A stretch of DNA of 64,000 nt from Gammaproteobacteria bacterium (GTDB taxonomy: Bacteria; Pseudomonadota; Gammaproteobacteria; HK1). Positions 32,621 through 57,022 of this stretch are shown piece by piece. A model generated the notes under the pieces. It was not told the DNA's origin. It was given only the letters and a program-made list of their open reading frames with translations, and searched no databases. The stretch spans positions 1,224-65,223 of the forward strand of contig JBAPTW010000152.1 in the NCBI GenBank assembly GCA_049282355.1, read 5' to 3'. The first letter of the stretch is position 1. Each line of letters begins with the position of its first letter. Made by a program: the position numbers and the translations under genes.

Positions 32621-35071
32621 TCAGGCTTTTGGCTTGCGGCCCTTCGTTGTCGGTGAAGCTGCCACCTCTGCATCATCAGATTTCGTCTGCGCCACTCCGC
32701 TTGTCGGGGGCTTATCAGCGCCTTCTTGCGTCTCGTGGTCTTCCTTCAACTGCGACCGCAATTCAGCCAGCTCAGAGCGCAGCACTTCGACCTCTGCCTC
32801 TGCCGGGGTGTCTGCTAGGTGCTTTTGTTCGGCAGGGATCGCTTCCGGCTCCCGTTGCAGGACGATGCCGGCCAGTGGTGGCAATGTAATCGACAGCGAA
32901 TAGGGCCGGTCCATCCACGGCATCTCCTCGGCGATGAGCGAAACTCCACCGTTTCCAACATTGCTGCCGCCATAGAACTCCGAGTCGGAATTGAAGATTT
33001 CTCGATAGGTGCCGGGACTTGGTATCCCGATACGGTAGCCATAGCGGGGTACCGGCGTGAAGTTCACCACCACGACCAAGAATTCATTATCGCTTTTGCG
33101 CAGATAGCTGAGAATCGACTGTTGACCGTCATGACAATCGATCCAATCAAATCCTTGCCACTCGAATTCATAGCAATAGAGCGCCACTGAGCGGTGATAG
33201 AGCGCATTCAGATCTTTGACCAGCCGCTGTACTCCACTGTGGAACGGGTATTGGACCACGTACCAGTCGAGGACCCTGGCGCTGTCCCACTCCGTCCCTT
33301 GACCAAACTCTGTGCCCATGAACAGTAGCTTCTTTCCGGGATGGGTGAACATGTACGTGTAGAGCAGGCGTAAGTTGGCAAAGCGGCGCCACTCATCCCC
33401 GGGCATTTTATTGAGCATAGACGCCTTTCCGTGCACCACCTCATCGTGAGAAAAGGGCAGCAGGAAATTCTCCGTAAAAGCGTACAGCATGCTAAACGTC
33501 AGCAGGTCGTGGTGGTACTGACGGTACACGGGATCGTGAGACATGTACCGCAGGGTGTCGTTCATCCAGCCCATATTCCACTTCAGGCTGAACCCAAGTC
33601 CCCCCACATAGGTGGGACGGGTCACTTGCGGCCAAGAGGTGGACTCCTCGGCCATCACCAATACCCCGGGATGCTGCCCATGAATCACGGCATTGAGCTC
33701 GCGAAGAAACTCCATCGCCTCAAGATTTTCCCGGCCGCCGTATTTATTGGGAATCCACTCTTCCCGCGAATAATCGAGATACAGCATCGACGCTACGGCA
33801 TCCACTCGCAGCCCATCGAGATGAAATTCCTCCACCCAAAACACGGCACTGGAAAGCAGAAACCCGCACACCTCGTGGCGTCCGTAGTTATAAATCAAGG
33901 TGGACCAGTCCAAGTGCTCGCCCTGGCGCGGATCCGCATGCTCATAAACGGGCTCACCGTCGAACCGGGCGAGACCATAGGCATCTTTGGGAAAATGTGC
34001 CGGTACCCAATCGAGGAAAATCCCGATGTCATGCTGATGACAGTAATTAACGAAATAGCGGAAATCATCCGGCTTACCAAAGCGGCTTGTGGGTGCGAAA
34101 TAGCCGGTGCTCTGATATCCCCAGGAAGCATCAAAGGGATGCTCCGTGATGGGCAGCAACTCAATATGGCTGAATCCCAGGTCCTTGACATAGGGTACGA
34201 TCTGTTCGGCAAGCTCCCGGTAGGTCAAGAATTCGCCTTCCGGGCCTCTTTGCCACGATCCCAAGTGCACCTCATAGATTGACATGGGCGCGTGGAGCCA
34301 ATCGCGGGATGCGCGTTTTTCCAGCCACGCCTCATCGGTCCAGGCAAACGAGGTTTCATCTACCGCGATTGAGGCTGTGCTCGGACGCATCTCAAACCGC
34401 TGACCGTAGGGATCGGTCTTGAGAAACACCATACCTGAATTGCGGTTACGAATTTCGAACTTATAAATAAGCCCCGCCTCAAGTTCAGGTATAAAGAGTT
34501 CCCAAACACCACTGCCTCCGCGCACTCTCAAGGGATGTGCACGACCATCCCAGTGGTTAAAATCACCCACCACGCTGACCCGCTCCGCATTGGGAGCCCA
34601 TACGGCAAACCCGATGCCGGCTATGCCGTCCACCACTCGCGGGTGTGCCCCAAGGAATCGATAGGCATGCCAGTGGCGTCCCTCGTTGAAAAGGTGCAGA
34701 TCAAAATCGCTCACCTGCGGCAAGAAAGTGTAAGGATCGTGGACGATGTGCTCATGATGTCCCGCGTCCCGCCAAATGAAGCGATAGTGAGCAGGAAGCC
34801 CATCGGGATCACCGCGCCACTCGAAAATGTCGGTATTGGGAATGCGTTCCATCGGCAACATCCCCTCGGCGATGGTCACATCGATGCAGTTTGGGATGTT
34901 GGCCCTGACCACGATGCCATCGCCTTCTTGATGGCGACCGAGCACCTCGAACGGATCGTGGTGCTTCGCTTCTGCGATTCGTCGCAAGTCTTCTGTGAGG
35001 TTGGGAATGTTCATTCGTTGGATCTCTATTGTGTTTTCGCGCTGCTCCCTCTGCAGATGCCTCGAGAGCAC
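32621..35071 (-). CDS. glgB: 1,4-alpha-glucan branching enzyme with a 77-aa charged C-terminal extension
   Basis: GH13 regions [25 protein letters not shown] and SHDEVVH, plus a CBM48 segment. The tail [10 protein letters not shown]...[21 protein letters not shown]...KGRKPKA maps to nt 32621-32854. The likely true start is the ATG at 35014 ([10 protein letters not shown]). Confidence 0.95.
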
Positions 35072-35484
35072 AAGACAGCCCGCAAGCTCCTTATCCGCTC
35101 ACCCATCAATGGTCATGGCAACAGCCCGCGCGCGGATTTGCCAACACGTCCTCTGGTCGGGAGAACTTGATCTATGGCGCAAGTTTCGTTGCGCCTGCGA
35201 CCCAAATAGCGACGTTTTGCCCCGCCCACACAAAAGGTAAAGTCTCGCCTTCGATAGGTGTCAGCCACCTCTTGCAACCCGGCTGGCGACTCAACTGTCT
35301 TATGCGCGTCCTTTCTTGTTGTGACAAACCCACAAATGGTATTGAATTAACAGTATTTTATTCGGTATGATGATTTGCTGCAATCATTGCATCCGGCATG
35401 TTCCTGAGTTGCACCATTTAGGGAGTGGACTGAACGATAGGTTAAGCTAGCTTGCTCGTTCCTATCGCAAACGTCACAAGCTAA

Positions 35485-35698
35485 GAAGCTGTTCTAAAAA
35501 TATCGCAAGCACCGGAGTCACAAGGCACACGGTGGCGACAAAATCGTCTGGAACGATTTCGAACAGCTGTAAGCTGGCCCTGAAGAGGTGAGCCCCAAGG
35601 AGGGGGCGAATAACAACCGGTGTGTACGTGGGGTTCATGAGCTTGTGAGCCGCCACGCCATACCGCTATGGCAAGCGCCGTAAATTTTGAAACAGTTC
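35485..35698. mobile_element. Long variant (214 bp) of the MITE-like family
   Basis: GAAGCTGTTCTAAAAATATCGCAAGCACCGGAG...GGAACGATTTCGAACAGCTG...GAGCCGCCACGCCATACCGCTATGGCAAGCGCCGTAAATTTTGAAACAGTTC. TAA on both flanks (35482-35484 and 35699-35701). Confidence 0.8.
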
Positions 35699-35981
35699 TA
35701 AGCAGGCAGGCGTTAGATTCGACGTCGAGGTGTCGAGGTCAGGGACCGCGGGCATGTTGGTTTGGCGCACTGCCATAGGCTAGGCCCACACCGGCTAATC
35801 TAGTTAGGTGCAAAAAGGACTGAAGCGGCGCGGCAGCGGAAAAAACATGAGGTCAGGCAGCAAACCTTCTTGAGCTGCCGATGACACCAACAACAAATCC
35901 TGTACCCTGTACCCCACCGGCAGCATGCGCCCGTGGGCGGCGAATCCCCACGATGAAATCAGAAAACCTGGAGTATGGTGC

Positions 35982-37253
35982 ATGAAGATATACAACCTCT
36001 TCCCGCCGCTTGCCGGCAAGTTTGCCAATTGGACCCCCCACCTCGATCGGGCGGCCAAGATGGGGTTCGACTGGATCTTCGTGAATCCCATCCACAAGCC
36101 TGGCGGATCAGGAAGCCTTTATTCCGTGGCAGATTATTTTGAGCTCAATGATCGCTTCGTGGATCCGAAATCGAGCAAATCGCCCGAAGCGCAGATAAAA
36201 GAAGTCATCCGCAAGGCGGAGCGCCGGGGATTGCAACTGATAGTGGATCTGGTCATTAATCATTGCGCATCGGATTCACCTCTCGTTTCCGCGCACCCTG
36301 AATGGTTTCTGCATAACGAAGACAACAGCATCGCCCATCCCTTCTGTATCGAAAATGGCAAAAAAACGGTCTGGGGGGATCTTGCACGTTTCGATCACCG
36401 AAATAACAGCGATCCGAACGGCCTTTATCGATATTGCTTCAAAATCGTGGATTATCTGATCCGGTTAGGCTTCGAGGGATTTCGCTGCGATGCCGCCTAC
36501 CAGATTCCAGGTAAGCTATGGCGACGCCTCATTGGGGAAACAAAAAACCAACACCCCGACGTGCTTTTTCTTGCCGAGACCCTCGGGTGCACCGCGGACC
36601 AAACCAAGAAAACCGCTGATGCCGGTTTTGACTATGTCTTTAACAGCTCCAAATGGTGGGACTTCTCCAAGCCCTGGCTGTTGGAGCAGTATGATCTCAT
36701 CCGCGAGCGAGCGCCCTCCATCAGCTTTCCTGAGAGTCACGATACGGCGCGGCTTATGGAAGAGATGCACGGCAATGTAGAGGCGCTGAAGCAACGTTAC
36801 TTATTTGCTGCGGTATTCTCGAGCGGAGTCATGATACCCATCGGCTTCGAGTTCGGCTTCCGTAAGCGCCTACATGTGGTGAAAACTCGACCAGAGGACT
36901 GGGAAGAAACGGACGTCGATTTGACCGACTTTATCGCCCGTGTCAATACCATGAAGTCGCGCTTCCGAATATTTCAAGAGGAGTGCCCCACACAGGTATT
37001 GCGCTACGATAATCCCGCCGTTTTGTTGATGTGGAAAGCTTCAGTAAAAACGTCCGAGGAAGCCCTGATCATTCTCAACAAGGATCCATGGAACCGACAG
37101 CATTTCCATGCGGAAAGCCTCGGGGGATTCATCCAAGGGGGCGCAGCACTGATGGATGTCTCTCCCGATGATCCCATGGACTACGTTCCCGTGCCTTTTT
37201 CCTATGAGCTACGCCCAGGCGAAGGCCGGGTAATGGTCACAACGCGAGAATAG
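35982..37253 (+). CDS. GH13 alpha-amylase-family enzyme, GlgE-like catalytic domain only
   Basis: MKIYNLFPPLAGKFANW...MGFDWIFVNPIHKPG resembles the start of the GlgE catalytic domain. Motifs present: DLVINH, GFRCDAAYQIP, FLAETLG, FPESHDT. GGAG lies about 9 nt upstream of the ATG at 35982. Confidence 0.7.
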   Translation: MKIYNLFPPLAGKFANWTPHLDRAAKMGFDWIFVNPIHKPGGSGSLYSVADYFELNDRFVDPKSSKSPEAQIKEVIRKAERRGLQLIVDLVINHCASDSPLVSAHPEWFLHNEDNSIAHPFCIENGKKTVWGDLARFDHRNNSDPNGLYRYCFKIVDYLIRLGFEGFRCDAAYQIPGKLWRRLIGETKNQHPDVLFLAETLGCTADQTKKTADAGFDYVFNSSKWWDFSKPWLLEQYDLIRERAPSISFPESHDTARLMEEMHGNVEALKQRYLFAAVFSSGVMIPIGFEFGFRKRLHVVKTRPEDWEETDVDLTDFIARVNTMKSRFRIFQEECPTQVLRYDNPAVLLMWKASVKTSEEALIILNKDPWNRQHFHAESLGGFIQGGAALMDVSPDDPMDYVPVPFSYELRPGEGRVMVTTRE

Positions 37254-37332
37254 GCTCACTGCCAAGCAGGTCGATGAGCAATAAGCCCGCCACATCGGAG
37301 CAACTCAGAACTGGTTTCGTTTAGGAAGTTCT

Positions 37333-38805
37333 ATGTACATTGCGATGATTTCCCCGGAATGTGCTCCCGTAGCCAAGGTGGGCGGTTTAGCCGATGTTGT
37401 GTTCGGACTGAGCCGCGAGCTGGAAATCCGGGGGAACGAGGTTCACATCATACTCCCCAAGTATGACTGTATGCGTTATGACCACATCTGGGGCCTGAGC
37501 ATCACTGTCACAGATCTGTGGGTTCCTTGGTACGGGACTAGTATCCATTGCACAGTGTGGTTTGGTTTCGTACATGGCCGAAAGTGCTACTTTATCGAGC
37601 CGCACTCAGAGGACAACTTCTTCAATCGCGGACATCTCTATGGATTTTCGGATGACACCGCCCGATTCTCTTTCTTCAGTAAGGCCGCCCTGGAATTTCT
37701 GCTGAAAGACAGTCGTCGTCCAGACATCATCCACTGTCACGATTGGCAAACGGGTCTCGTGCCGGTGCTTCTATATGAAATTTACCAGCATATCGGGATG
37801 CACAACCAACGGGTCTGTTACACCATTCATAATTTCAAGCACCAAGGCACTACCGCGGAATATATCCTGCGCGCCACGGGATTGATACGCCCGGAGCATT
37901 TCTTTCACTATGATCGACTGCGGGATAATTTCAATCCGTTCGCCCTTAACCTGATGAAAGGCGGCATTGTCTATTCGAACTTCGTCACCACCGTGTCGCA
38001 ACAATATGCCCATGAAGCACGTTACACGGACCAAGGCTATGGTCTCGGACACACCTTGGAGGTCCACCAGGGTAAATTCGGCGGAGTGCTCAATGGCGTG
38101 GATTACGACGTTTGGAACCCGGAGATCGATCCCTTTATCCCGGTTCGGTACAGCGCCGCAGATCTCGATGCTAAATACGGCGACAAAGAAGCCCTTCGGG
38201 ATCGATTATGGTTGCAGAAAGGTTTCAAACCGATCATCGCCTACATCGGCCGGCTGGATAGCCAGAAAGGTGTCCACCTTATCCGTGACGCTATTTTCCA
38301 CGCGCTGCATTCCGGCGCCCAATTCGTTCTCCTCGGCTCCAGCCCCGACGAGGCCATCAGTCGAGAATTCTGGCACCTCAAGCACCATCTAAACGACAGC
38401 CCAGATTGCCATCTTGAGCTGGGGTTCAATGAGGAGCTTTCCCATCTCATCTATGCGGGCGCCGACATGATCGTGATGCCAAGCCTGTTCGAGCCCTGCG
38501 GCCTGACCCAAATGATCGCCTTGAAATACGCAACTGTGCCTATCGTGCGGGCCGTGGGAGGTCTGGTGGATACGGTCTTTGATCGCGACCACTCGTGGAA
38601 GCCTTTGGAAGAACGCAATGGTTATGTTTTTCATGAGGCGAGCCTGCCCGCGCTCGAAGCAGCCATGCATAGGGCGATCGGTCTTTGGTACGGTTACCCC
38701 GATGAATTCCGTAAGCTCATGATTCAAGGCATGCGCTACGATTATTCTTGGAACCGCCCAGGTCAAGACTACCTGAATATCTACAACTACATCCGGCCGA
38801 AGTAG
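37333..38805 (+). CDS. glgA: Glycogen (starch) synthase, ADP-glucose type
   Basis: MYIAMISPECAPVAKVGGLADVV (KxGGL motif). 490 aa with a GT5 layout. Confidence 0.95.
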   Translation: MYIAMISPECAPVAKVGGLADVVFGLSRELEIRGNEVHIILPKYDCMRYDHIWGLSITVTDLWVPWYGTSIHCTVWFGFVHGRKCYFIEPHSEDNFFNRGHLYGFSDDTARFSFFSKAALEFLLKDSRRPDIIHCHDWQTGLVPVLLYEIYQHIGMHNQRVCYTIHNFKHQGTTAEYILRATGLIRPEHFFHYDRLRDNFNPFALNLMKGGIVYSNFVTTVSQQYAHEARYTDQGYGLGHTLEVHQGKFGGVLNGVDYDVWNPEIDPFIPVRYSAADLDAKYGDKEALRDRLWLQKGFKPIIAYIGRLDSQKGVHLIRDAIFHALHSGAQFVLLGSSPDEAISREFWHLKHHLNDSPDCHLELGFNEELSHLIYAGADMIVMPSLFEPCGLTQMIALKYATVPIVRAVGGLVDTVFDRDHSWKPLEERNGYVFHEASLPALEAAMHRAIGLWYGYPDEFRKLMIQGMRYDYSWNRPGQDYLNIYNYIRPK

Positions 38806-38827
38806 GTTACTTTCATCCGCGGATCGA

Positions 38828-38989: not shown

Positions 38990-40171
38990 ATGGCCGAAAT
39001 CTTCCATGCCTTAGCCCTGAACCTGCATCAACCCGAAAACAATCTAGCCACACTTTGGGCACAAAACCAAGCGGAAGCCCTGGAAATCTTACGCGCCCTC
39101 GATCGGCTCTCGAAGGTGCTCGCATCCCATGACGATCGCGCACAAGTTCATCTCGCCATCTCCGGCACGCTGTTAAACTCGTTGGCCAGTGCCGACTTCC
39201 AGGAGCTTGTCTCTGAGTATCTCGACTGTCACGGGTTCCTGCGGGCAATCCAAAACCGGCGGATTTTCGAGATCCTCGGTACCGCCTATTATCACCCCGT
39301 GCTTCCCATCATTCCGCCCATTGATTGGGATGAGCACCTTACCCGCTGGGTTAATCTCGCACGCTACCTATTTGGCCGCACGCGCTTTGAAGGATTTTGG
39401 CCACCGGAGATGGGTTTCTGCATGGAGCTCATTCCACATTTGAAGCGCCTAGGCTATCGCTACGCGCTAGTGGACAGCGAGCACGTCGAGCCACTGACGC
39501 CGATGAACCGAGCAGAGCTACGCTACCTTCCCCACATCGCCGAGTTTGGCGGCGATGAGATGGTGGTCATTGTGCGTGACCGAGAGCTTTCCAACGCCAT
39601 CTTAGCAGACATGAGCTGTGATCAGTTCCAAGAGACGGTCCGCAAACAGACGAGCGAATGCTCAGCACCGGCAATGGTAACGCTGTGCGCCAACGGCGAT
39701 AACGGTGAGCGGTTTCGAAGCGCCGATCCGCAGGTAAATTTCTGGAGCAGCTTTTACCTGCCACTGTTGGAAAGTAGCGACACCCGCTCTCCCCTGCGGG
39801 CAGTTTTTGTTCACGACTACCTGAATCGCTATGGTACTTACGGCCGCGTAAAGGTCGGACCCGGCGCCTGGAATACGCCCTGGCACGACGGCAAAGATTT
39901 CGTGCAGTGGACGGGATCGGCGGCACAGCGAGAGGCATTAACTCGCTTGGATCAGGTCAGCCAGGCATTCCACACCGCAAGGGCAAACGTGATCGGCATA
40001 AGGGCAGAGAGCGACGAGATTCGCCACCAGCTTGAGGAGGCCCTCCGGCGAATTTTGAGAGCAGAGACAAGCTGTCATTTTTTCTGGGGCGAAGCTTGGG
40101 TCCCGCGCTGCCACCGCGATCTGGATGAGGCCTGTGCCTGCTTGGAACGCGCTTGGAACGCGCTCCGCTGA
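38990..40171 (+). CDS. GH57 family glycoside hydrolase
   Basis: LNLHQP, GTAYYHPVLPII, FWPPEMG (nucleophile Glu region) and CANGDNGERF motifs, in the order typical of GH57. Confidence 0.8.
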   Translation: MAEIFHALALNLHQPENNLATLWAQNQAEALEILRALDRLSKVLASHDDRAQVHLAISGTLLNSLASADFQELVSEYLDCHGFLRAIQNRRIFEILGTAYYHPVLPIIPPIDWDEHLTRWVNLARYLFGRTRFEGFWPPEMGFCMELIPHLKRLGYRYALVDSEHVEPLTPMNRAELRYLPHIAEFGGDEMVVIVRDRELSNAILADMSCDQFQETVRKQTSECSAPAMVTLCANGDNGERFRSADPQVNFWSSFYLPLLESSDTRSPLRAVFVHDYLNRYGTYGRVKVGPGAWNTPWHDGKDFVQWTGSAAQREALTRLDQVSQAFHTARANVIGIRAESDEIRHQLEEALRRILRAETSCHFFWGEAWVPRCHRDLDEACACLERAWNALR

Positions 40172-40194
40172 TATTTGCAAGTAAGTGACACTTA

Positions 40195-40337
40195 GAAGCT
40201 GTTTTAAAAATGTCGCGAGCGTCGACAGAGCAAGGCGCACGGCGGCGAGAAACCGGAGTGTACAAGGGAGTACATGAGGATTTTGAGCCGCCGCGCAACG
40301 CCGCTATGGCAAGCGCAGTAATTTTTAAAACAGCTTC
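40195..40337. mobile_element. Complete MITE-like element (143 bp), reference copy
   Basis: Perfect 16-bp termini GAAGCTGTTTTAAAAA / TTTTTAAAACAGCTTC. TTA lies on both flanks (40192-40194 and 40338-40340). The right TTA is the stop codon of the debranching enzyme gene. The element sits between convergent genes. Confidence 0.85.
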
Positions 40338-42248
40338 TTAACCCTGCCACAGCGCACAACTGAGTGGCGGAAGCTCGAGCCGACCACCCGTGCAAGGGAG
40401 TCGGGCACTGGTCAGTCCTCCGGGCTCGAAGCGCTCATGGTCGGCAAGTTGCCGCCACTGAGTCACATCGATATCTTCCAACGAGAGATGGACCGTCTCA
40501 TGGTGCGGATTAATGGCGAACAACAGCCGGTGCTGTCCCTTGCTGTAATCAGCATTGAACAAGACAGCCATGGCTGAACCCTGGGCGGCACCAAAGTAGC
40601 GGAAATAGTCATCCGAGGGGGGAGAATCCAGGCGAAACAGCCTGCCACTTTCCGATAGGCGGAATCGTATCCAGCGTCGAAAGTACTCGTGCGAGCCGGA
40701 GAATACGAGTAACCGATGATAATCGATGGCGTTCTCCTCCGGCGCGCGATAGCTGTTGTTTATGCCTCGCTTCGTACGCAGAGTATCTTGCCCGGCGGAC
40801 AACATGGGTATACCTAACGAGCACATCAAGACCGCCAACATGAGGTGAGTACGCCGCCGATCGTTCGCAGTGGGGTGGTCGCCCCGATGATGAGGGTTTT
40901 CCGTGATCTTGTCGATCCAGCAGAGATCGTCGTGGGATTCCACGTAATTGACGCTCTGTGCCGGCCAGGCGCTCAAGTGCGCGAGGCTTCCGGCCATGAA
41001 ATAGCGCAGTCCTGCCTGATTCCCCTGTCCCATGATGTAGTCGCGCAAAAACTCGCGATAGCCGTCGTTCCAGGAAGCGAAACCGCTCGATTTCAATGCC
41101 AAGGCAATATGACCCCTGAAGCTCCATGGCTCAGCGATGAGGATGACTGAGGGTTTGACACTCTTGAGCGCGGCCTCGATTTCCTTGAGCACCTTGACGC
41201 CGATTAGCTCGGCCAGATCGAAGCGAAATCCATCGATGTCGTAGGTCTCAATGAAATGAATGAGGCTGTCTATGATGAGCCGACGCCCCATTGGGGTATC
41301 ACAGCGCAAATCATTGCCACAACCGCTCCAGTTGCTAAGGTTCCCGCTCTTATCGAGTTGGAAGTAATAATGCTTATCGATGAACAAGAGGTGGTTTGGG
41401 TCACCGCTGTGGTTGTAAACTACATCCATGATGACCGCTATTCCTTGGTGATGAAAAGCGGCCACTAAGGCTCGGAATTCCTCCACCTGTGAGCCAAGCT
41501 CCGGTACCATTGCATAGCTGCTTTCCGGAGAAAAAAAGTTCACAGACATGTAGCCCCAGTGATAGTCATCCCGGGAATCGCAGCCTCCGAACTGCTGGAC
41601 CGGCAGCAACTCAACGGCGTTTACACCGAGGCTGCGCAGATAGGAACCCTGCGCCTCTACCCATCGCTGCAATCCGGTGAAACCGAGGCGCTCCTCGTCC
41701 TCCAAGGGTACGGGCGCATAGCGGATGAGATCGCGAACGTGCGCTTCTAGCACCACAAGATCGTGCCAGCAGGGCGGTTGGAACGACGGTTCGTCACGCT
41801 TCAGGCGCCGCCGATCCCAGATGATGCCTGGGCCACCCGGTCCCACGGTTGCCACAGCATAGGGATCGAGTATCCGGAACTCACCGTCAAAATGGCTAAA
41901 GGCATCCTGATCCAATGAATCCAAACGATAGTAGTAATACCAACCATGGAGGTTGGCGGGATAGCTTGCCTCCCAAACTCCGCTGTCGAGTCGGCTAAGC
42001 CGCTGTACCTTGGGCTCCGGACTATCCAAGTGTCTGAAAAAAAATACTCTGACGACCGCCGCCCGCGGTGCAAAGAGACGAAACACGGTGGTGTCTCCCC
42101 TCACGGAGGCACCAAGCCAACGATCGCTTCCTAGCCTTAATAGCGCCCCGCTCTCATCGAGCAGTTCTGCCTGCTCAACAAGCTCGGACAGCGATATTTT
42201 CTTGTCCACCTTAGCTCGCTGGCGTTCGTCCATCGACACCTTAGCCAT
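40338..42248 (-). CDS. Pullulanase-type GH13 debranching enzyme with N-terminal CBM48
   Basis: DVVYNHSG, GFRFDLAELIG, LIAEPWS, VNYVESHDD. The ATG at 42248 (MAKVSMDERQ) has AGGAGG 9 nt upstream. The ORF track's longer start at 42269 is GTG. Confidence 0.85.
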   Translation of the reverse strand: MAKVSMDERQRAKVDKKISLSELVEQAELLDESGALLRLGSDRWLGASVRGDTTVFRLFAPRAAVVRVFFFRHLDSPEPKVQRLSRLDSGVWEASYPANLHGWYYYYRLDSLDQDAFSHFDGEFRILDPYAVATVGPGGPGIIWDRRRLKRDEPSFQPPCWHDLVVLEAHVRDLIRYAPVPLEDEERLGFTGLQRWVEAQGSYLRSLGVNAVELLPVQQFGGCDSRDDYHWGYMSVNFFSPESSYAMVPELGSQVEEFRALVAAFHHQGIAVIMDVVYNHSGDPNHLLFIDKHYYFQLDKSGNLSNWSGCGNDLRCDTPMGRRLIIDSLIHFIETYDIDGFRFDLAELIGVKVLKEIEAALKSVKPSVILIAEPWSFRGHIALALKSSGFASWNDGYREFLRDYIMGQGNQAGLRYFMAGSLAHLSAWPAQSVNYVESHDDLCWIDKITENPHHRGDHPTANDRRRTHLMLAVLMCSLGIPMLSAGQDTLRTKRGINNSYRAPEENAIDYHRLLVFSGSHEYFRRWIRFRLSESGRLFRLDSPPSDDYFRYFGAAQGSAMAVLFNADYSKGQHRLLFAINPHHETVHLSLEDIDVTQWRQLADHERFEPGGLTSARLPCTGGRLELPPLSCALWQG

Positions 42249-42290
42249 TCGCGCTAACCTCCTGTCCACCTGCCTAAATGCATCCGTTGA

Positions 42291-43130: not shown

Positions 43131-43217
43131 CGGACTACAGAACTCCCCATCAGTCCGTTACGAATCACCCTCGCAGCAATGGGCATAACCGTCCGAGCGG
43201 CCATCGCTGAATAGCGC

Positions 43218-44261: not shown

Positions 44262-44309
44262 GGAAAATGCCTGGGACGATTAGGGATCATCTACAGCGGG
44301 TACCTTTTT

Positions 44310-47840: not shown

Positions 47841-47947
47841 AGGAGCTATCCAAGCTATGCGGGAGTGACAAATGTTGCCGGCGATTGTACCTCCAACCCA
47901 CCGCGGCCACGACCATCCGCCGGCAGCTTCCCGTTACCCAAGGGTCC

Positions 47948-50900
47948 TTATAGCCCCACCTGGGGACGTGTTTGCACCACGTACAACTCCCCCTGCTGCA
48001 CGGCGCCTTCAATATCTTGCGCTGACCCCAGGGTTTGTTCTATTTCGCTTCCAAGGCGGGCGATCTTCGCCAGCAGATCCTGGCGAAACCCACGATCGCA
48101 AACCAGCGGCTCGTCGCAGTAGTCTACCAAGCGCTGGCATGGCGCCTGCGCCAAAAAGCTATCGTAGAGCCCGGCGCCGGCAAACCCCTCGAGATCTTCG
48201 CCGTTCGAGTCAGAGCGAAAGATGACTCCCTGGCCATCCAGAGCAATGCTCTTGCTCGGGTATGATACGGGGGATAGCGCCAAGCTGTCTTTGCGACAGA
48301 TAAAACCCAACGCCCGTCCAGGATAATTTCCCACCAGCGTCTCGCCCATGCCGACGACCACCTCGGCGAACAGCTCGTCGGTGGCGCCTGTTAACGGATT
48401 TACCGTATGGATCACGAAGGCATACTGCGCCTGCACGACTTGTTGAATCAATACCGCAAGCATCAAATCCTCGTGGGCAATCTTGAGCGTCGTGCGCGAA
48501 TAATAAGCGCGCTCGTTCCACTTTGATGCCCACACTCGACACAATGCTCGCCACACAGAGGTCCATTCGTTGTCCGGCAAACCTGCTTGCCTCCATACTT
48601 CGCCGAGAGCATCCCGAAACGCCGCCGGCGCCTCGAGCGCGAGCAGAGCCTCCCTTAACTGCGCTAACACGCGCTGCGGATCGCGCTCCAACTCGCCCAG
48701 CAGCTGCTCATAGCGCTTCGCCAGCGGCGAGTTCTGCCGACACTGCAGGATTTCCTCAAAGACCCCAAAGGGCACAGCGATAGAAGTGGGAAATCGGATC
48801 CAGCTCGATAGCCGGCCCTGCAAATCCACCAGGTGGCTAGATTTGCCCCCGACCAATTCGTCGCGGAATGACGCCGACCCGATCGCCCAGGTAGAGAATG
48901 GCCGCCGTCGCACCTCGACTGCGGGCCGTCCGCGCGGCGCCACATCACCGGGCGCGGCCTCTTGCGCTTCCTCAAAGGTAACGTCTCCCCCGGCGTTCAC
49001 GGCAAAACGCAAGCGATGATGCTCTAGCGCCTTTAGCTGCTCATAGGTGACCTCATCGAAGCAAGTCGCGAACAGTACATGGGCGTTTCGTGCTCGCACC
49101 GCCACGTGGGACACTAAGTCAGGGGTATCACGGGTGATCACGGAGGTAACCCCGTCCGGGATTTCTTCGTCGCCCGCCACGCGATCGCTGACTAACACGG
49201 TCGGCTCCGGGTAACGCTGCCCCTGAGCGTTCAGCAGGCTATTGAGGACACATACCCGACCCGCCGCCAAGGAGGCGGGACTGATGATCTGCCATCCTCC
49301 CGTGCCGCAGCGGGCTCGCAGCACGGGATCCAACCGCCGCAGTAGCGCCGACAACACGAACGGCAGATTGCCACGAATAATCTCCTCACTGAAAACCGCA
49401 ATGGTCCATTGAGCGACACCGAGCGCCTCTCCCAAAAACTCGGCCTGTGGCTGCAGACGACGATAAAGTGCATCGCTCCAATCACCGGTAACACGGGCAG
49501 CCCGGTCGGTGACACTCTTGACCTGCAGAGCCCAATCAACATCCCGCTCCCGCGCCCTGGCAAGGCCACCGAGCTGGCGAGCCACGAAAGCAAACTCTGT
49601 CTCGCCGAACGACAGGCCCATATTGTGCGCTGTCGTCGCCGCGAGCGAGGTCAGGGCCTGCACATCGACATCGCGTAAGGCCTGACGTTCAATGGCAGCG
49701 CGTAGCGCCTGCTCAAGTGCCAGATCGAGATAAAGCATGTCCCGCAAGACCCGCGGCTCATCGGTGGCATCGATACGGCGGGCAAGCAACTGACGGGTCT
49801 CGGTTAGGAGCTCCGCCCACCCCGGCAAAGCGCTGCTATCGGTAACACCCGCCCGCAATCGATTCAGCAGTTCTCTCGTGCGCTCGTCCAACCTCGCTTC
49901 CGCAGCGGCGATGGCAGATTCCATGTCGGTCCCCGAGTGCACCGAGCGCAGTAACCGCAGGAAACCCTGAAAATCACCTACCAAGCCTTGCTTCTTCTCG
50001 GCGTAGAACTGAGGGTCAGTTTTTATGGGACGTTCGAAGCTTGCCAGACGCTCCCGGCTCACACCACCGCGCTCCAGGGTGCGGTAAAAAGCATCCAGCG
50101 CACCGTCAGCCTGAAGAAAGGCAAGGTAGGCCTCGCAAATAACCACGTCGTCGGGGGTGGTATTGTTGTGCAGCTTCTGATGCCACTCTTCCAGAAAGGT
50201 ACCGTGCACTTCCTTGATATGGTGGCTATGCATGATGTTGAGGATCTCATCCCTGACCCGCTGTCCTTCCCCACCAGGACCAAGGGTGGTCAACATCAGC
50301 CGCACAGCGGGCCGACTCGTTGGATAATCTTTGTAGATACTCGCCAGGCGCAAGGTCAAGCGATCCTGGGCGTGCGCGAGCTCACGGGGTTGGGTGTTGT
50401 ACCGGCGCTGCCAGTCCAGCTGACGAATGGCCGAATAGCGCAGCCACGTATAGATCAGCGCCAGTGCCTCGTCATTCTCCTCCGCCCCCTCCAGCACCTC
50501 GTAGCACAGATTGAAACGGTGCATGAGGGTCCAAGACTGTCGCCCCGTCTCGGCGCCGATGATCCGCTGTGCGAGCTGTTCCAAATTCCCCGCCGCAAGG
50601 ATCTTCTTGCCGGCTGAGACCACGCGCAACCGCAGCTCCATGTCACCCCTATCCGCCTTAATCCAGCGCTCCTGCGAAGAGGCATAAAGCACGAACTGTA
50701 TGGCGGGGGGCACATTCGCCTTGGCGAAGCTCATTTCCAGCCAACGCAGCCTATCTTGATCGCGAAACGGCGTCTGCAGCGCCTTATTCTGAAAATCTCG
50801 ACTTCCTGGAGGCCATATTGTCTTCGGCGGCATCTGCCAGCCATCGTCAGAGCCCCCGACAATACCCCAGTGCAGCCACACGGGCGCATCGACATCGGTC

Positions 50901-51430
50901 ACGAAAACCATCTCCGTTCCGGTGTCGCTCTTCAGCGTTGCCGCCGCCAAGCTCTCGCCTGTGTCAAGGTGGAATGTTTGCCGACCCCAATCCGCGCCCC
51001 TGATCCGTCCCTCGATCGCTTCCACGGGGCTTGGGGCTTGCTTTTCGGCAGGAAGGGTGAGGCAAAAATCATCCTTACCATCCTTTATCCAACGCCGTTC
51101 TTCCGGCAGGTATAACACGAACGGTAAAGCGTTCCAGCTCAGCGGCCGGTCGAGCCGCACCGCCAGTGTCGCCCGACCCGGTGCACTCGGCTCTAGCGGG
51201 CTTTGCACCGCATGATGGTCAACAGCGACGGTCTGCGGCGGCCAAACCGAAGGAGGTGGCAGATGCCAGTTGCGATCCCGGTGACGCCGCAAGCCCCAAT
51301 GCAAGCAGCACGGCTTATCCGTTTCTATGTCAAAAATTAGGGTTAAATGCCGATCCGAGCACTGCTTGGTCACTCGAATAGCGATCTCACCGGCCCGGTA
51401 AGTTTTCTCAACCCATTCTTCATTATTCAT
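47948..51430 (-). CDS. Alpha-glucan water dikinase (GWD1)-like protein with two N-terminal CBM45-like modules
   Basis: Two repeats carry LHWG..W..PP..WPP and FVLY...ERWIK (about nt 50624-51391). Other motifs: EEWHQKLHNNTTPDDVVICEAY, the phospho-His motif LVSHVAVRARNAHVLFATCFD (His codon 49106-49108), and the C-terminal VGGKSSHL...DSNGEDLEGFAGAGLYDS...VLIQQVV. ATG at 51430; the longer TTG start at 51463 is possible. Confidence 0.85.
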   Translation of the reverse strand: MNNEEWVEKTYRAGEIAIRVTKQCSDRHLTLIFDIETDKPCCLHWGLRRHRDRNWHLPPPSVWPPQTVAVDHHAVQSPLEPSAPGRATLAVRLDRPLSWNALPFVLYLPEERRWIKDGKDDFCLTLPAEKQAPSPVEAIEGRIRGADWGRQTFHLDTGESLAAATLKSDTGTEMVFVTDVDAPVWLHWGIVGGSDDGWQMPPKTIWPPGSRDFQNKALQTPFRDQDRLRWLEMSFAKANVPPAIQFVLYASSQERWIKADRGDMELRLRVVSAGKKILAAGNLEQLAQRIIGAETGRQSWTLMHRFNLCYEVLEGAEENDEALALIYTWLRYSAIRQLDWQRRYNTQPRELAHAQDRLTLRLASIYKDYPTSRPAVRLMLTTLGPGGEGQRVRDEILNIMHSHHIKEVHGTFLEEWHQKLHNNTTPDDVVICEAYLAFLQADGALDAFYRTLERGGVSRERLASFERPIKTDPQFYAEKKQGLVGDFQGFLRLLRSVHSGTDMESAIAAAEARLDERTRELLNRLRAGVTDSSALPGWAELLTETRQLLARRIDATDEPRVLRDMLYLDLALEQALRAAIERQALRDVDVQALTSLAATTAHNMGLSFGETEFAFVARQLGGLARARERDVDWALQVKSVTDRAARVTGDWSDALYRRLQPQAEFLGEALGVAQWTIAVFSEEIIRGNLPFVLSALLRRLDPVLRARCGTGGWQIISPASLAAGRVCVLNSLLNAQGQRYPEPTVLVSDRVAGDEEIPDGVTSVITRDTPDLVSHVAVRARNAHVLFATCFDEVTYEQLKALEHHRLRFAVNAGGDVTFEEAQEAAPGDVAPRGRPAVEVRRRPFSTWAIGSASFRDELVGGKSSHLVDLQGRLSSWIRFPTSIAVPFGVFEEILQCRQNSPLAKRYEQLLGELERDPQRVLAQLREALLALEAPAAFRDALGEVWRQAGLPDNEWTSVWRALCRVWASKWNERAYYSRTTLKIAHEDLMLAVLIQQVVQAQYAFVIHTVNPLTGATDELFAEVVVGMGETLVGNYPGRALGFICRKDSLALSPVSYPSKSIALDGQGVIFRSDSNGEDLEGFAGAGLYDSFLAQAPCQRLVDYCDEPLVCDRGFRQDLLAKIARLGSEIEQTLGSAQDIEGAVQQGELYVVQTRPQVGL

Positions 51431-51498
51431 TTTGATACCGCCTGGGAACCTCAGGCAAAGCAACTAGGTATACCTCCAATGGCTTTAGGGATACCCCC

Positions 51499-51527
51499 TT
51501 GACAGGGCCATTAGCGTAGGATAATTT
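51499..51527 (+). promoter_or_regulatory. Candidate sigma70-type promoter for the phasin gene
   Basis: TTGACA (51499-51504), a 17-nt spacer, then TAATTT (51522-51527), about 50 nt upstream of the phasin ATG. It lies in the divergent intergenic region shared with the GWD-like gene. Confidence 0.4.
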
Positions 51528-51577
51528 GTTCTTGTTGCAGTGCAGCATTCAAACACAGACCATTGCGGAGCCCGGAC

Positions 51578-52069
51578 ATGCCTGAGAAAGCCCAATCCTT
51601 TAACCCGTTTGATATGAGCAAAGTACTCTCCGAATTCGACCCAAGCAAGATGATGAACCAGGTCACAAAGGCCTTTTCCGATTATAAAGTACCCGGATTA
51701 GATATGAGCGCGGTCATCGAACATCAGCGCAAGAACATCGAGGCGTTAACCACCGCGAATCGACAAGCCCTTGAGGGGCTGCAAGCAATCGCCATGCGCC
51801 AAAGCGAAATCCTACGCCAAACCATGGACGAAGCGGTAGCAGCGTTGAAAGATCTCTCCTCTTCCGAAGGCCCAACCGAGGCAGCCTCGAAGCAGGCTCA
51901 ACTCTTGGGGAAAGCCCTCGAAAAGGCGCTGACCAATATGCGCGAGCTGGCCGAAATGGCGACCAAATCCAATACCGAAGCATTTGAAGTCGTCAAGACT
52001 CGCATGACAGAAAGCGTCGAGGAGATCAAGCAACTCGCCAGAAAGATGCCCGGTCAACAGAAAGCCTAA
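51578..52069 (+). CDS. Phasin family protein (TIGR01841-like)
   Basis: MPEKAQSFNPFDMSKVLSEFDPSKMM...IEHQRKNIEALTTANRQALEGLQAIAMRQSEILRQTMDE, the typical phasin helical repeat. GGAG lies 7 nt upstream of the ATG. Confidence 0.8.
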   Translation: MPEKAQSFNPFDMSKVLSEFDPSKMMNQVTKAFSDYKVPGLDMSAVIEHQRKNIEALTTANRQALEGLQAIAMRQSEILRQTMDEAVAALKDLSSSEGPTEAASKQAQLLGKALEKALTNMRELAEMATKSNTEAFEVVKTRMTESVEEIKQLARKMPGQQKA

Positions 52070-52099
52070 GATCTCGCTTCTCAGCGGGTAAATTGATTT

Positions 52100-52129
52100 G
52101 GGGCCAGGCTAATTCACTGGCCCCTTTTT
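52100..52129 (+). terminator. Rho-independent terminator after the phasin gene
   Basis: GGGGCCAG-(9 nt loop)-CTGGCCCC followed by TTTTT. Confidence 0.65.
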
Positions 52130-52150
52130 CGTGCCGGGAAGTTGCCGGCA

Positions 52151-52180
52151 GACCAAGTGCAGTAGTTTTTAAAACAGCTT

Positions 52181-52181
<1 letters not shown>
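52151..52181 (+). repeat. Right-end fragment of the MITE-like family overlapping the pgi stop codon by 1 nt
   Basis: ACCAAGTGCAGTAGTTTTTAAAACAGCTTC compared with GGCAAGCGCAGTAGTTTTTAAAACAGCTTC at 59379-59408. Confidence 0.75.
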
Positions 52182-53830
<1,649 letters not shown>

Positions 53831-53902
53831 CTCAATTCCCCCCTCATGGTGGTGTTATTAACTTTTGTTTTGCTCGGCTATGGCAATTGATAAAACAGCC
53901 TC

Positions 53903-55420
53903 CTAGCCCACCTCACGGCCATAGAGCCGCACCGCGCGACGCATCCGCGAGGCCAAGTCCGCCGGTATCTCTTGCCAGCTAAAGCGCCATCGCCAATTTC
54001 CCTCATCCACTCCGGGAGTGTTCATCCGCCCGCCTGCGTCCAGACCGAGCACATCCTGCATCGGCACAATAGCGAGCTTTGCCACGGACATGAGCGCGGT
54101 GCGAATCATTGACCACGGCATGTCGGCAGCCGCATCTCCGAGATAGTCGAGTACATAGCTTCGCTCTTCCTCCGCGAGCTCCTGATACCACCCAAGTGTG
54201 GTGTTATTGTCGTGGGTGCCGGTGTACACCACACTATTCGGAATATGGTTATGGGGCAGATACGGGTTGTCGTGGTTTCCGTCAAAAGCGAATTGCAGCA
54301 CCCTCATCCCCGGAAACTTGAACTGATCTCGCAGGGCTGTGACTTCCGGTGTTATGATTCCAAGGTCTTCTGCCACAAGGCGCAGCGGATCGAAAGCTTG
54401 CTGTAGGGTGCTGAACAGCTCCAGCCCCGGTGCTTTCACCCATTGACCTTTAAGTGCTGTGTCCTCTGTACCGCAGATCTCCCAGTGCGCCTCAAAACCT
54501 CGGAAGTGATCGATGCGCACCAGATCAAACAGCATCAAATGATTTTTCACCCGCTCGCGCCACCACCAGTAATCGTCTTGCCGCATCCGGTCCCAATCGT
54601 ACAACGGGTTGCCCCAGCGCTGGCCGGTAGCGGAGAAGTAATCGGGCGGTACGCCCGCAACGACCAACGGCCGCCCGACATCGTTGAGTCGAAAATAATG
54701 GCGACGGGCCCACACGGCGGTGCTATTCTCGGCCACGAAAATGGGCATATCGCCAAACAGCAAAATCCCACGGTCATTGGCATAACGTTTCAGCGCGCGC
54801 CATTGCCGAAAGAACACAAACTGTTCAAAGCGCTGCTGTTCCATCGCATCGGCCAGCCGGGCGCGCGCATCCTCCAGTGCCCGCGGCTCCCGGTCCCGTA
54901 ATGACGCCGCCCAGTCCCACCAGGGAGCGCCGCCATATTCTTCTCGAAGCGCCTGAAACAGCGCATAGTTCTCCAGCCAATAAGCAGACTTAGCCTTGAA
55001 CTGCTCATAAGCTATGCGGTCGGCTGCACTGGCCCTCGTCAGAAAGCCGAAGCACCCTTGGGCAAGCCGCGAGCACCTATAAACACACGCTTCCGCCGCT
55101 GCCTTTCGCGCCTCGGGCTCGTCGTCTTTATCAAGCCATCCTTCGGACTCGAGCAGCTCAAGGCTAATCAGCCGATCATTGCCCGCATGAATGGATTGGC
55201 AAGCATAGGGAGAGAGATTTCCATGGGTAGGGTTGACCGGGAGCATTTGCCACACGGTACAGCCGCTAGCGGCAAGAAAGTCGACGAACTGATACGCGCT
55301 CGGCCCTAAATCACCATTATCGAGGCGTCCTGGAAGTGAGGTGGGATGTAGCAGGACCCCGGCCCGGCGCCGATCGAGCACCGGCGAAGGTGCTCGGCTC
55401 GCAACTCTCGAGCTACCCAT
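53903..55420 (-). CDS. malQ: 4-alpha-glucanotransferase (amylomaltase, GH77)
   Basis: RRAGVLLHPTSLPG, GDMPIFVA, GVPPDYFS..GQRWGNP, RIDHFRGF and YTGTHDNNT. The ATG at 55420 has GGGAG 8 nt upstream. The longer start at 55471 is TTG. Confidence 0.92.
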   Translation of the reverse strand: MGSSRVASRAPSPVLDRRRAGVLLHPTSLPGRLDNGDLGPSAYQFVDFLAASGCTVWQMLPVNPTHGNLSPYACQSIHAGNDRLISLELLESEGWLDKDDEPEARKAAAEACVYRCSRLAQGCFGFLTRASAADRIAYEQFKAKSAYWLENYALFQALREEYGGAPWWDWAASLRDREPRALEDARARLADAMEQQRFEQFVFFRQWRALKRYANDRGILLFGDMPIFVAENSTAVWARRHYFRLNDVGRPLVVAGVPPDYFSATGQRWGNPLYDWDRMRQDDYWWWRERVKNHLMLFDLVRIDHFRGFEAHWEICGTEDTALKGQWVKAPGLELFSTLQQAFDPLRLVAEDLGIITPEVTALRDQFKFPGMRVLQFAFDGNHDNPYLPHNHIPNSVVYTGTHDNNTTLGWYQELAEEERSYVLDYLGDAAADMPWSMIRTALMSVAKLAIVPMQDVLGLDAGGRMNTPGVDEGNWRWRFSWQEIPADLASRMRRAVRLYGREVG

Positions 55421-55726
55421 CGCCGCAACTCCCGGCACTGCACCCGAGACAGCGAAATTCGCTAAACCCAAGCAGCCGCCCGACGTTAAGGCCGGTATCC
55501 TTGGGCGATATGGGATCAGGCATGATGGAAACTTGGCCTATTTTTGCTTATTGGTAGAGGCTTACGTGGCCGGCCACGTAAGCCTCAGAGAAACGCCATC
55601 CCTTCACCCACCGACTATGCTGGCTAAGGGAAAGTGACTACGCGGAGTTCCTTTAGTCGGCGCCTCGCAGCCTCCAAACGTCGTGCGACAATACTCTCTT
55701 GCCCATGACTGCCGCGTTGGACGCGG

Positions 55727-57022
55727 CTACCGAAACTGATGGATCGTTTGCCCCAACATCTCGGGCGTAACCAACACCACGCCTCTTTCCGTAACATAAA
55801 ATCGCCGATTGTCCTCCTCTGGATCCTCGCCGATAACAGTTCCCTCGGGGATAACACAGCCCTTGTCAATCACCGCTTTCGAGATGCGGCAATTTCGCCC
55901 AATGTCGACCTCGGGAAGCACGACGCTATCCGCCAACCAGGAGTAAGAATTGACTTTCACATCGGAAAACAACAACGATCGACGTAATGACGCGCCGGAG
56001 ATGATACACCCGCCGGAGACCATGGAATCCACCGCCATACCTCGGCGCCCTTCGTCATCGAAGATAAATTTGGCCGGCGGCAATTGTTCTTGGTAAGTCC
56101 AAATCGGCCATTCGCGATCATAGAGGTTCAAGGGGGGGGTAATCCCGATGAGCTCCATATTCGCAAGCCAGAAGGCGTCTACTGTGCCGACATCGCGCCA
56201 GTAAGGCTGTTTCCCTGCTTGCACATCCGTAAACGGATAGGCAACCACCCGATGATCGCGGATTCCCGACGGAATCAGATCCTTGCCGAAATCATGGCTC
56301 GATGTAGGCGAGTCGGCATCCTTGATCACCTGCTCATAGAGGAACTCCACGTTAAACACGTAGATCCCCATGGAAGCGAGCGCCACATCGGTACGTCCCG
56401 GCACCGGCTTTGGATCGGCGGGCTTTTCTTGAAACGCGATGATATTGTCGTCCTTGTCGACCGTCATGACCCCAAAACCCTGGGCTTCGTCGAGCGGCAC
56501 ATTCTGACATGCCACAGTCAAATCCGCACCCGTTTCCACATGGTGCGCGAGCATCGGTCCGTAATCCATCTTGTAGACATGGTCACCCGCCAACACCAAC
56601 ACATACCGCGGGTTTTGCAGCCTTATCAGGTCCAGATTCTGGTACACCGCATCACTGGTTCCGGCATACCAGGATGTCTCAACCCGTTGCGAGGCAGGGA
56701 ATACCTCCACGAACTCACCAAACTCGCCACGAAGGAAGCCCCATCCTTTATGGATGTGGCGGATGAGCGAATGTGACTTGTATTGAGTCAATACCCCAAT
56801 CCGGCGAATGCCGGAGTTGATGCAATTGGACAACGGGAAATCGATGATCCGGAACTTTCCCCCAAAAGGGACCGCCGGCTTGGCGCGCCACATGGTGAGG
56901 TGTTTAAGCCGCTCACCCCGGCCACCAGCAAGGATCAGTGCCACGGTATCCCGAGTAAGGCGGCTGACAAAGCGTGGCGTTCGTGGAGCAGTGGATTGGG
57001 GAATAGTTTCGTCGGTAATCAT
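55727..57022 (-). CDS. glgC: Glucose-1-phosphate adenylyltransferase
   Basis: [49 protein letters not shown], and a C-terminal left-handed beta-helix. Confidence 0.95.

Follow-up and report, generated by a model that had tools for sequence, protein, structure and literature searches.

Homologues of plant glucan, water dikinases, with metallo-TIM-barrel partners, within a bacterial storage alpha-glucan gene cluster

Starch phosphorylation by the glucan, water dikinase GWD1 (EC 2.7.9.4) and PWD, a phosphoglucan, water dikinase (EC 2.7.9.5), is presented in published work as a hallmark of eukaryotes that store starch. Among eukaryotes, GWD is reported to track semicrystalline glucan perfectly and never to be present in glycogen accumulators, and the prokaryotes listed as starch-like accumulators are limited to a few cyanobacteria, to clostridia and to some Verrucomicrobia (preprint 10.64898/2026.09.25.754361); phosphorylation of prokaryotic glycogen, without known machinery, was described as unexplained in a 2026 review (PMC13666283). 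The present work concerns a 64-kb stretch of DNA (hereafter, the window), which is part of a 66-kb contig in a gammaproteobacterial metagenome-assembled genome (MAG; 4.7 Mb, 511 contigs, estimated 98% complete and 2.2% contaminated), and the alpha-glucan gene cluster located at its positions 32621–57022. This cluster and its counterparts in other phyla are bacterial storage-glucan clusters that contain full-length GWD- and PWD-type genes, travelling with a conserved metal-enzyme partner. Semicrystalline alpha-glucan stores have been reported as granules of diazotrophic unicellular cyanobacteria and as clostridial granulose, both described, to our knowledge, without GWD-type dikinases, whereas the window encodes such dikinases and its polymer is predicted from the genes.

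Gene identities were assigned using a listing of open reading frames (ORFs) and Pfam and NCBIfam scans of the window. The scans recovered, at the same coordinates, all 13 genes that an earlier reading of the DNA, made without database searches (the sequence-only reading), had named between 32621 and 57022; the presence of 13 glucan-related genes in 24 kb, with the order kept in a second genome of the genus, is far beyond chance. The gene at 47948–51463 (minus strand) encodes a GWD1-type dikinase as a 1171-aa ORF with a likely ATG start at 51430. The protein (PF23166 twice, PF22973, PF01326) follows the five-domain scheme of potato GWD1 (PMC13553574), comprising two modules of the CBM45 type (CBM, carbohydrate-binding module), the central domain, the phosphohistidine domain with H786 and the ATP-binding domain. 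Residues 290–717 match the structures of the potato GWD1 central domain (9ha9/9qvi, E 2e-81), and over 1084 aa the protein shares 38.7% identity with a representative of the plant GWD1 type (P0270, 1471 aa), which is itself 84% identical to this potato fragment. The motif of the catalytic His is kept, with H786 in PDLVSHVAVRARN...FATCFD compared to PDVLSHVSVRARN...FATCFD in P0270, as is a Glu/Arg stretch, which reads SEEIIR in the window protein and TEEIIR in P0270; in the central domain of potato GWD1, E900 and R904 have been proposed to face the catalytic His (PMC13553574). Homologues carry the automatic annotation 'alpha-glucan,water dikinase' of the Joint Genome Institute (JGI). The potato central domain is 36–43% identical to bacterial GWD1-type proteins, and the identity of the window GWD to homologues of other bacterial phyla is 41–54%, the low end of which overlaps the potato range.

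The second dikinase gene, at 44310–47840 (minus strand), encodes a protein of 1176 aa with a different N-terminal part. Counting from the N-terminus, it contains an endonuclease-IV-like TIM barrel (residues 1–270; PF01261, E 1.3e-21), a Pro/Arg-rich linker, a partial GWD central region and the phosphohistidine and ATP-binding domains (PF22973, E 9e-20, and PF01326, E 1e-37), with the catalytic His found as H787 in PHLSHLGVRARQ; the E..R motif is also conserved. It is 28% identical to the GWD1-type paralogue over residues 431–1175. No CBM was found with Pfam that could correspond to the CBM20 of plant PWD, the N-terminus being covered by the PF01261 barrel (residues 22–258). The automatic JGI label of its homologues is 'phosphoglucan,water dikinase', and both barrel-fused and unfused forms exist. 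The homology, the domain order and the catalytic motifs are direct observations, and they identify the two proteins, which the sequence-only reading had listed as dikinases, as a homologue of plant GWD1 and a PWD-like relative and not as generic phosphoenolpyruvate (PEP)-utilising enzymes.

Two more full-length GWD1-type paralogues, about 50% identical, are encoded in the genome (C364:5300-8797 and C362:1344-4934; loci L096, L097), so that the genus carries three GWD1-type genes and a PWD-like one. The possibility that these extra paralogues were mis-binned was rejected, as orthologues are present in both other genomes of the genus. Their neighbours encode OmpA/DUF4398 proteins, an alpha/beta hydrolase and an LPG-synthase-like protein.

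The PWD-like gene is accompanied by a gene for a stand-alone protein of 347 aa (43218–44261, minus strand), which the sequence-only reading had described as a TIM barrel; the AlphaFold 2 model bears this out (predicted local distance difference test score, pLDDT, 91.9). The protein has no Pfam match up to E 10 and no match in sequence or profile searches of the PDB, and pairwise BLASTP with the fused barrel also gave no match. The hhalign comparison of the two barrels resulted in a probability of 93% with conserved motifs in register, and the 347-aa protein is, judging from the models and this alignment, a second barrel of the kind, remotely paralogous to the one that forms part of the PWD-like dikinase. 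The best Foldseek matches of its model are apurinic/apyrimidinic (AP) endonucleases of the endonuclease IV type (6khy and 5zhz, E 4e-5 to 7e-5), followed by sugar isomerases. The model of the fused barrel (pLDDT 93.5) likewise has AP endonucleases as top Foldseek matches (6khy, 6ki3), and a profile built of 24 fused-barrel sequences found MJ1311 (E 3e-14) first and several entries for endonuclease 4 next, with sugar epimerases ranked lower.

Both families possess a large set of invariant potential metal ligands. In 16 homologues of the 347-aa protein, 14 such residues are invariant (H63, H96, D97, E131, D159, H162, H224, H226, D229, H231, D243, H244, E293 and H295); those of the fused barrel are H77, H111, E142, D174, H177, H203/205/207, D214, H216 and E250. 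Endonuclease IV has nine metal ligands in the order His, His, Glu, Asp, His, His, Asp, His, Glu, whereas epimerases of this fold have only four, Glu-Asp-His-Glu. The invariants of the fused barrel line up with the stretches HAPY, vHgG, ENT, ClDtcH, lvH and DrH of the Mycobacterium tuberculosis enzyme (5zhz), and we take the aligned positions to be the ligands of the three-metal, phosphate-ester-cleaving site of Escherichia coli Nfo. The likeness to endonuclease IV and AP endonuclease 2 (Nfo, 1qtw; 5zhz; African swine fever virus enzyme, 6khy) and to MJ1311 (3wqo) includes the barrel fold, the PF01261 match of the fused barrel and, probably, the ordered His/His/Glu/Asp..His/His/Asp.His/Glu pattern. 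In contrast to these enzymes, the window barrels have a glucan context and not one of DNA repair, one of the families is fused to a dikinase and the other is not recognised by Pfam, and the similarity is low (profile E 2e-5 to 1e-2). The gene context argues for a glucan-linked substrate rather than abasic-site DNA, and the role of phosphoglucan phosphatases is the best-supported interpretation of the two TIM barrels.

GWD-type homologues number more than 1000 in a metagenome protein collection, and in a pattern-limited scan relatives turned up in 171 or more species-representative genomes, almost all being MAGs. They belong to Nitrospirota, Verrucomicrobiota, Planctomycetota (including the anammox Scalindua), Thermodesulfobacteriota and few Gammaproteobacteria. 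In a neighbourhood comparison, window proteins were searched against the ORFs of 80 GWD loci, 72 of which had room for the next gene. The neighbours of GWD include the compact GH13 protein described below (26 loci), glgA (13), GH57 (11), malQ (9) and glgB (8). The gene immediately after GWD encodes a barrel in 57 of these 72 loci, which represent about six phyla, with a median gap of about 6 bp; the barrel is fused to a second dikinase in 26 of these and free-standing in 31. All 17 loci in which the 347-aa barrel was seen also code for the second, PWD-like dikinase. In 61 related genomes, GWD and the barrel family share their presence pattern, as each of the three genomes of the genus has both and the 58 others have neither. 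This synteny and this phyletic pattern were observed directly; the neighbours of GWD tie the dikinases to alpha-glucan metabolism, and the co-occurrence ties the barrel to the dikinases.

With the clade of PWD-like sequences as the root, quick maximum-likelihood trees placed plant-type GWD1 and other long, presumably eukaryotic representatives in one clade, which adjoins a Planctomycetota/Gammaproteobacteria clade that includes the window's three paralogues. The Shimodaira–Hasegawa-like approximate likelihood ratio test (SH-aLRT) support was 84–85 and the backbone was unresolved; because of this weak support, no claim is made on the direction of exchange with eukaryotes. The bacterial GWD family itself is old and diverse. 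A GWD gene was also found in a 4.2-kb low-coverage contig that is binned as an Asgard archaeon and labelled as Promethearchaeota archaeon (L050, JAIWHJ010000234.1); in the tree, it is nearly the same as a gene of a Thermodesulfobacteriota MAG (L053), and it most likely reflects a binning error and not an archaeal GWD.

The synteny comparison showed that relatives without GWD have a compact glgA-glgB | glgC-malQ-pgi arrangement, and that about 17 kb sits between glgB and pgi in the genus of the window. The block begins with GH13-glgA-GH57, continues with pullulanase-CE4-barrel-PWD-like-GWD and ends with the phasin gene; the same gene order is found in the second genome of the genus (G001). The locus is a composite, in which an acquired block has been inserted into an ancestral core composed of glgB and glgC-malQ-pgi. 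The core includes the branching enzyme GlgB (32621–35071, minus strand; 816 aa; NF003811, 1014 bits over residues 124–739), the orthologue of which adjoins glgC in the GWD-less relatives, and, on the other side of the block, pgi for glucose-6-phosphate isomerase (52181–53830, minus strand; PF00342, 677 bits), malQ for the GH77 4-alpha-glucanotransferase, or D-enzyme (53903–55471, minus strand; PF02446, 542 bits), and glgC for ADP-glucose pyrophosphorylase (55727–57022, minus strand; PF00483 and hexapeptide domains). The order glgC-malQ-pgi is present in the GWD-less relatives, where GlgC is 66–76% identical and lies beside glgB and malQ. The tail ascribed to GlgB in the sequence-only reading is real, since the family models cover the protein only up to about residue 740 of its 816; it is a C-terminal acidic/basic stretch of about 75 aa. 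The glgA of the relatives is only 31–33% identical to that of the window, and no other copy of the relatives' type is present in the genome, which indicates that the native glgA was replaced.

A second GlgB of 1219 aa is encoded outside the cluster (5136–8795, minus strand), and the double length noted earlier was verified with Pfam, which finds three CBM48, four GlgB_N stretches and one catalytic domain; the protein is 50% identical to the 816-aa GlgB, and its N-terminal half is duplicated ahead of the single catalytic domain. The GlgB proteins neighbouring GWD in three loci of other phyla (L014, L017, L032) resemble the 1219-aa GlgB more than the 816-aa one, being 55–56% identical to the C-terminal half of the former. 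The GH31 alpha-glucosidase-family enzyme that the sequence-only reading had placed nearby is also present (plus strand; PF01055, 385 bits, with GH31 N- and C-terminal domains), its start being refined from 26007 to 26001 (26001–28328).

The first part of the inserted block contains a compact GH13 protein (35925–37253, plus strand; 442-aa ORF with the likely start M20 at 35982; Pfam hDGE_amylase and Alpha-amylase). Its best solved relative is the catalytic domain of the maltosyltransferase GlgE (5cgm, E 1e-22), with the FRxD, E and D catalytic positions aligned, i.e., the catalytic Asp/Glu/Asp of GH13_3 is kept. The earlier name 'GlgE-like' therefore holds for the catalytic core and not for the whole protein, as the N/S and C domains of GlgE (PF11896 and PF21702) are absent according to Pfam, whereas both are present in the full-length GlgE of the genome. 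Homologues of the compact GH13 in the 26 GWD loci belong to other phyla and are 59–68% identical; the protein also occurs in 7 of the 61 relatives, 4 of which are without GWD. The next gene, glgA for an ADP-glucose-type glycogen/starch synthase (37333–38805, plus strand; NF001905, 864 bits), is 61–74% identical to the glgA beside GWD in other phyla, and its type is found in 7 of the 61 relatives, with the same type adjoining GH13 in relative G037. The assignment of this glgA as a 'GWD-associated' type was dropped, as the glgA-GH13 pair is also found in relatives without GWD; because it is adjacent in these few relatives, the pair is regarded as a separate unit that often accompanies GWD. In loci with a free-standing barrel (L024, L029, L038, L043, L044, L051 and others), the compact GH13 gene lies directly 3' of the barrel gene, with the ends sometimes overlapping, and GWD-barrel-GH13 looks like a conserved three-gene core. 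In two relatives (G011:C448:1936-3237, G003:C10:26708-28177), the compact GH13 orthologue contains an in-frame TGA and the malQ orthologue an in-frame TAA; these stops may be assembly errors or mark pseudogenes. The small GH57 protein (38990–40171, plus strand; 393 aa; PF03065, E 7e-17) is weakly similar to the GH57 4-alpha-glucanotransferase 1k1w, and its homologues are 40–55% identical in 10 GWD loci of other phyla, with an orthologue of 80% identity in G001.

The remaining genes of the block are more restricted in their distribution. The pullulanase-type (limit-dextrinase-like) GH13 protein with CBM48 (40338–42269, minus strand; TIGR02104, 298 bits, under the cut-off) has the type I pullulanases 2wan and 2e8y as its best solved relatives (E 1e-67 to 1e-62), and it is predicted to be a cytoplasmic debrancher; the gene is kept in the genus and was not found in GWD loci of other phyla. 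The CE4 polysaccharide-deacetylase-fold protein (42291–43130, minus strand; PF01522, E 1.6e-22) is present in G001 but missing from all 79 other GWD loci, and is a genus-specific addition. The phasin gene (51563–52069, plus strand; PF09361, TIGR01841) is divergent from the GWD gene, and its position beside GWD is kept within the genus; the phasin is one of seven paralogues in the genome, which also encodes PhaC, and it most likely belongs to polyhydroxyalkanoate granules.

A 145-nt direct repeat, 88% identical, was found at window positions 40194–40338 and 59265–59409; one copy sits exactly within the gap between the GH57 and pullulanase genes, and the repeat agrees with a separate remark of the sequence-only reading on a family of elements resembling miniature inverted-repeat transposable elements (MITEs) at gene junctions of the locus. 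Further downstream, the protein of the elongation factor G (EF-G) family encoded at 60697–62748 (minus strand) has its nearest named relatives in Chloroflexi/Anaerolineae (about 63% identity) and not among the Gammaproteobacteria. The gene probably represents an additional EF-G paralogue, either divergent or acquired by transfer.

The sequence-only reading had stated that no glgP is present in the 64 kb, and a genome scan with PF00343 gave zero phosphorylases on the contig of the window. The genome does encode GlgP at C437 (838 aa, 1096 bits), so its absence from the window is no sign that the organism lacks phosphorolysis; C320 encodes another member of the phosphorylase family, which contains DUF3417. 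The search of the whole genome for glgP, treS and amylases also located three GlgX (C137, C172, C276; none on the window's contig) and two TreZ. A 1735-aa MalQ-TreY fusion is also encoded (C411:1325-6532, L085; 2243 bits on NF011077), with a TreZ about 2.6 kb away on the same contig. A full-length GlgE (C150:6471-8489) lies beside a family 4 glycosyltransferase, which is possibly GlgM-like; the two genes together span C150:4890-8489 (L094, L095). TreS is contained in a 1138-aa ORF directly after GlgX (C276:219-4305; L091, L119), probably a TreS-maltokinase fusion. The organism thus seems to have both a GlgE and a GlgC/GlgA pathway, and the GlgE (C150) and TreS (C276) corresponding to the TreS-Pep2-GlgE pathway are separate from the compact GH13, which travels with its GlgA type and often with GWD. 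No match of the beta-amylase family GH14 (PF01373) was found in the genome, and neither was a CBM-bearing dual-specificity glucan phosphatase of the SEX4, LSF2 or laforin type; PF00782 matches one ORF of 212 aa (C322), which, judging by its length, is too short for an added CBM and also lies outside the contig of the cluster.

Compared with the classical glgBXCAP operon of the E. coli type, the locus likewise has glgB, glgC, glgA and malQ/pgi clustered, and GlgX and GlgP are present in the genome. It differs in that glgX and glgP lie outside the cluster of glgB, glgC and glgA, in the other type of glgA, which is paired with the compact GH13, and in the extra DNA with two dikinases between glgB and pgi. 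With the reversible starch phosphorylation of plants and algae, which acts together with limit dextrinase/isoamylase and D-enzyme, the locus shares the GWD1 domain order, the His motif and the strong similarity to 9ha9/9qvi, the presence of a PWD-like dikinase as a second one, ADP-glucose-based synthesis and the combination of GH77 with a pullulanase-type debrancher in one locus. In contrast to the eukaryotic system, the predicted system of the window is bacterial and cytoplasmic; its PWD-like enzyme contains an endonuclease-IV-like barrel instead of CBM20, and two metallo-TIM barrels are its candidate phosphatases, without a SEX4/LSF2-type protein or beta-amylase. The resemblance to starch-type metabolism proposed in the sequence-only reading therefore stands in part: the GWD1-type and PWD-like dikinases, the pullulanase-type debrancher and GH77 mirror the plastid degradation set, whereas GlgP, three GlgX, GlgE, TreS and TreY/TreZ are encoded elsewhere in the genome and GH14 and the CBM-bearing dual-specificity phosphatase are missing from it. 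That reading had also held that its starch-like interpretation would weaken if the organism made ordinary soluble glycogen, had glgP elsewhere and kept the extra genes silent; of these, the presence of glgP elsewhere is the case. The predicted logic of degradation, with GWD, the PWD-like enzyme, the pullulanase-type debrancher and D-enzyme, is plant-like.

With moderate confidence, we read the locus as a composite serving an intracellular storage alpha-glucan, in which a core and two mobile units are combined, the dikinases would phosphorylate the polymer and the barrels would act as phosphatases. The first horizontally mobile unit would consist of the compact GlgE-like GH13 with its own GlgA type, plus GH57, and the second of the GWD1-type dikinase, the barrel-fused PWD-like dikinase and the second barrel, extended in this genus by CE4 and the pullulanase-type debrancher. 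The insertion into the core is a direct observation; the glucan substrate, the phosphorylated positions and the phosphatase role of the barrels we infer. The polymer would be synthesised by GlgC, GlgA and the two GlgB; the GWD-type enzyme would transfer the beta-phosphate of ATP via His786 to glucosyl residues, at C6 by analogy with plants, and the PWD-like enzyme would add further phosphate via His787, at C3 by the same analogy. The phosphate may loosen packed chains, so that pullulanase, GH13, GH57 and MalQ, together with GlgP and GlgX from elsewhere in the genome, can act, and the two barrels with their endonuclease-IV-type ligands would then hydrolyse the phosphate esters, which corresponds to the SEX4/LSF2 step of plants.

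Several observations weigh against this reading. A barrel is not adjacent to GWD in 15 of the 72 loci, both extra GWD paralogues stand alone, and in the window itself a gap of 107 bp separates GWD from the gene that follows, so that the two are not coupled. The only pointer to orthology with plant PWD is the automatic JGI label. With the fused barrel as query, Foldseek gives ketose 3-epimerases scores close to those of AP endonucleases, and the phosphatase role consequently rests on the ligand pattern and gene linkage and not on the fold. A promoter/terminator scan of 39500–57500 gave no more sites than shuffled sequence, so that no operon is claimed, and no paper on bacterial GWD or PWD was found in the literature searched.

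The organism could also make ordinary soluble glycogen, with the dikinases adding a light regulatory or quality-control phosphate, e.g., modulating branching or turnover, and with nothing starch-like about the polymer. We consider this possible but improbable; the retention of the full classical toolkit (GlgP, three GlgX, MalQ) and the absence of beta-amylase from the genome are in line with it, as are reports that potato GWD1 can phosphorylate glycogens (PMC13553574) and that GWD raised glycogen phosphate about 5-fold in E. coli (PMC13666283). It agrees less well with the report that eukaryotic GWD is never found in glycogen accumulators (preprint 10.64898/2026.09.25.754361), with the investment of the genus in three GWD1-type paralogues and a PWD-like enzyme and its addition of a pullulanase-type debrancher, and with the replacement of the native glgA. 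A related doubt concerns the TIM barrels, which might modify sugars, as an epimerase, isomerase or keto-sugar lyase would, or merely bind glucan in place of CBM20, without catalysis. D-psicose/D-tagatose 3-epimerases and 3-keto-glucoside lyases follow close behind the AP endonucleases in the Foldseek search with the fused barrel, as does rhamnose isomerase for the stand-alone one, and the fused barrel occupies the place of CBM20 in plant PWD. We nevertheless think such a role rather unlikely, given that both families keep His-rich sets of about nine or more invariant ligands at endonuclease IV positions and that endonuclease 4 entries outrank epimerases in the profile search; a mere binding module is also at odds with the barrel being equally common as a free-standing protein (31 loci).

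The dikinases might also act on something other than an alpha-glucan, a small molecule or another polymer, like rifampicin phosphotransferase or phenolic phosphate synthetase of the same superfamily, with the clustering being incidental; the ATP-binding domains do match PEP synthase and rifampicin phosphotransferase models, and two of the GWD paralogues lie outside any glucan context, but the two CBM45-type modules, the central domain with its 36–43% identity to potato GWD1 and the glucan genes neighbouring GWD in many phyla make this highly improbable. Equally, the GH31 alpha-glucosidase, the pullulanase and MalQ could process imported dextrins, and the locus could serve to take up and digest starch or maltodextrin of external origin instead of managing an internal store. 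This can hardly be reconciled with the synthetic genes glgC, glgA and glgB in the locus, the ATP requirement of the dikinases, the lack of any obvious signal peptide, by eye, in the locus proteins and the zero transporter genes within 32621–57022, and we give it almost no credence.

The reading of the locus as a composite for an internal, phosphorylated store can be extended to a bolder one, which is offered as tentative and is, in our opinion, unlikely to hold in full: at least six bacterial phyla, with the genus of the window among their members, would run a full cycle of glucan phosphorylation and dephosphorylation, with GWD- and PWD-type dikinases as kinases, the two barrel families as phosphatases taking the place of the dual-specificity enzymes of plants and animals, and an insoluble, semicrystalline, starch-like polymer, and eukaryotic GWD would share a recent origin with the Planctomycetota/Gammaproteobacteria branch.

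The most valuable content of the window is a bacterial glucan-dikinase module with metallo-TIM-barrel partners inside an ordinary glycogen core. The composite locus, with its core, its acquired module and its replaced native glgA, offers a natural comparison with the sister genera that do not have the module. If the proposed functions are true, the module would represent an unstudied layer of control on bacterial glycogen or starch-like stores and the barrels would define a new class among the glucan phosphatases; how the starch-phosphorylation system arose in evolution would become testable, and compact bacterial dikinases would be available for making phosphorylated starches.

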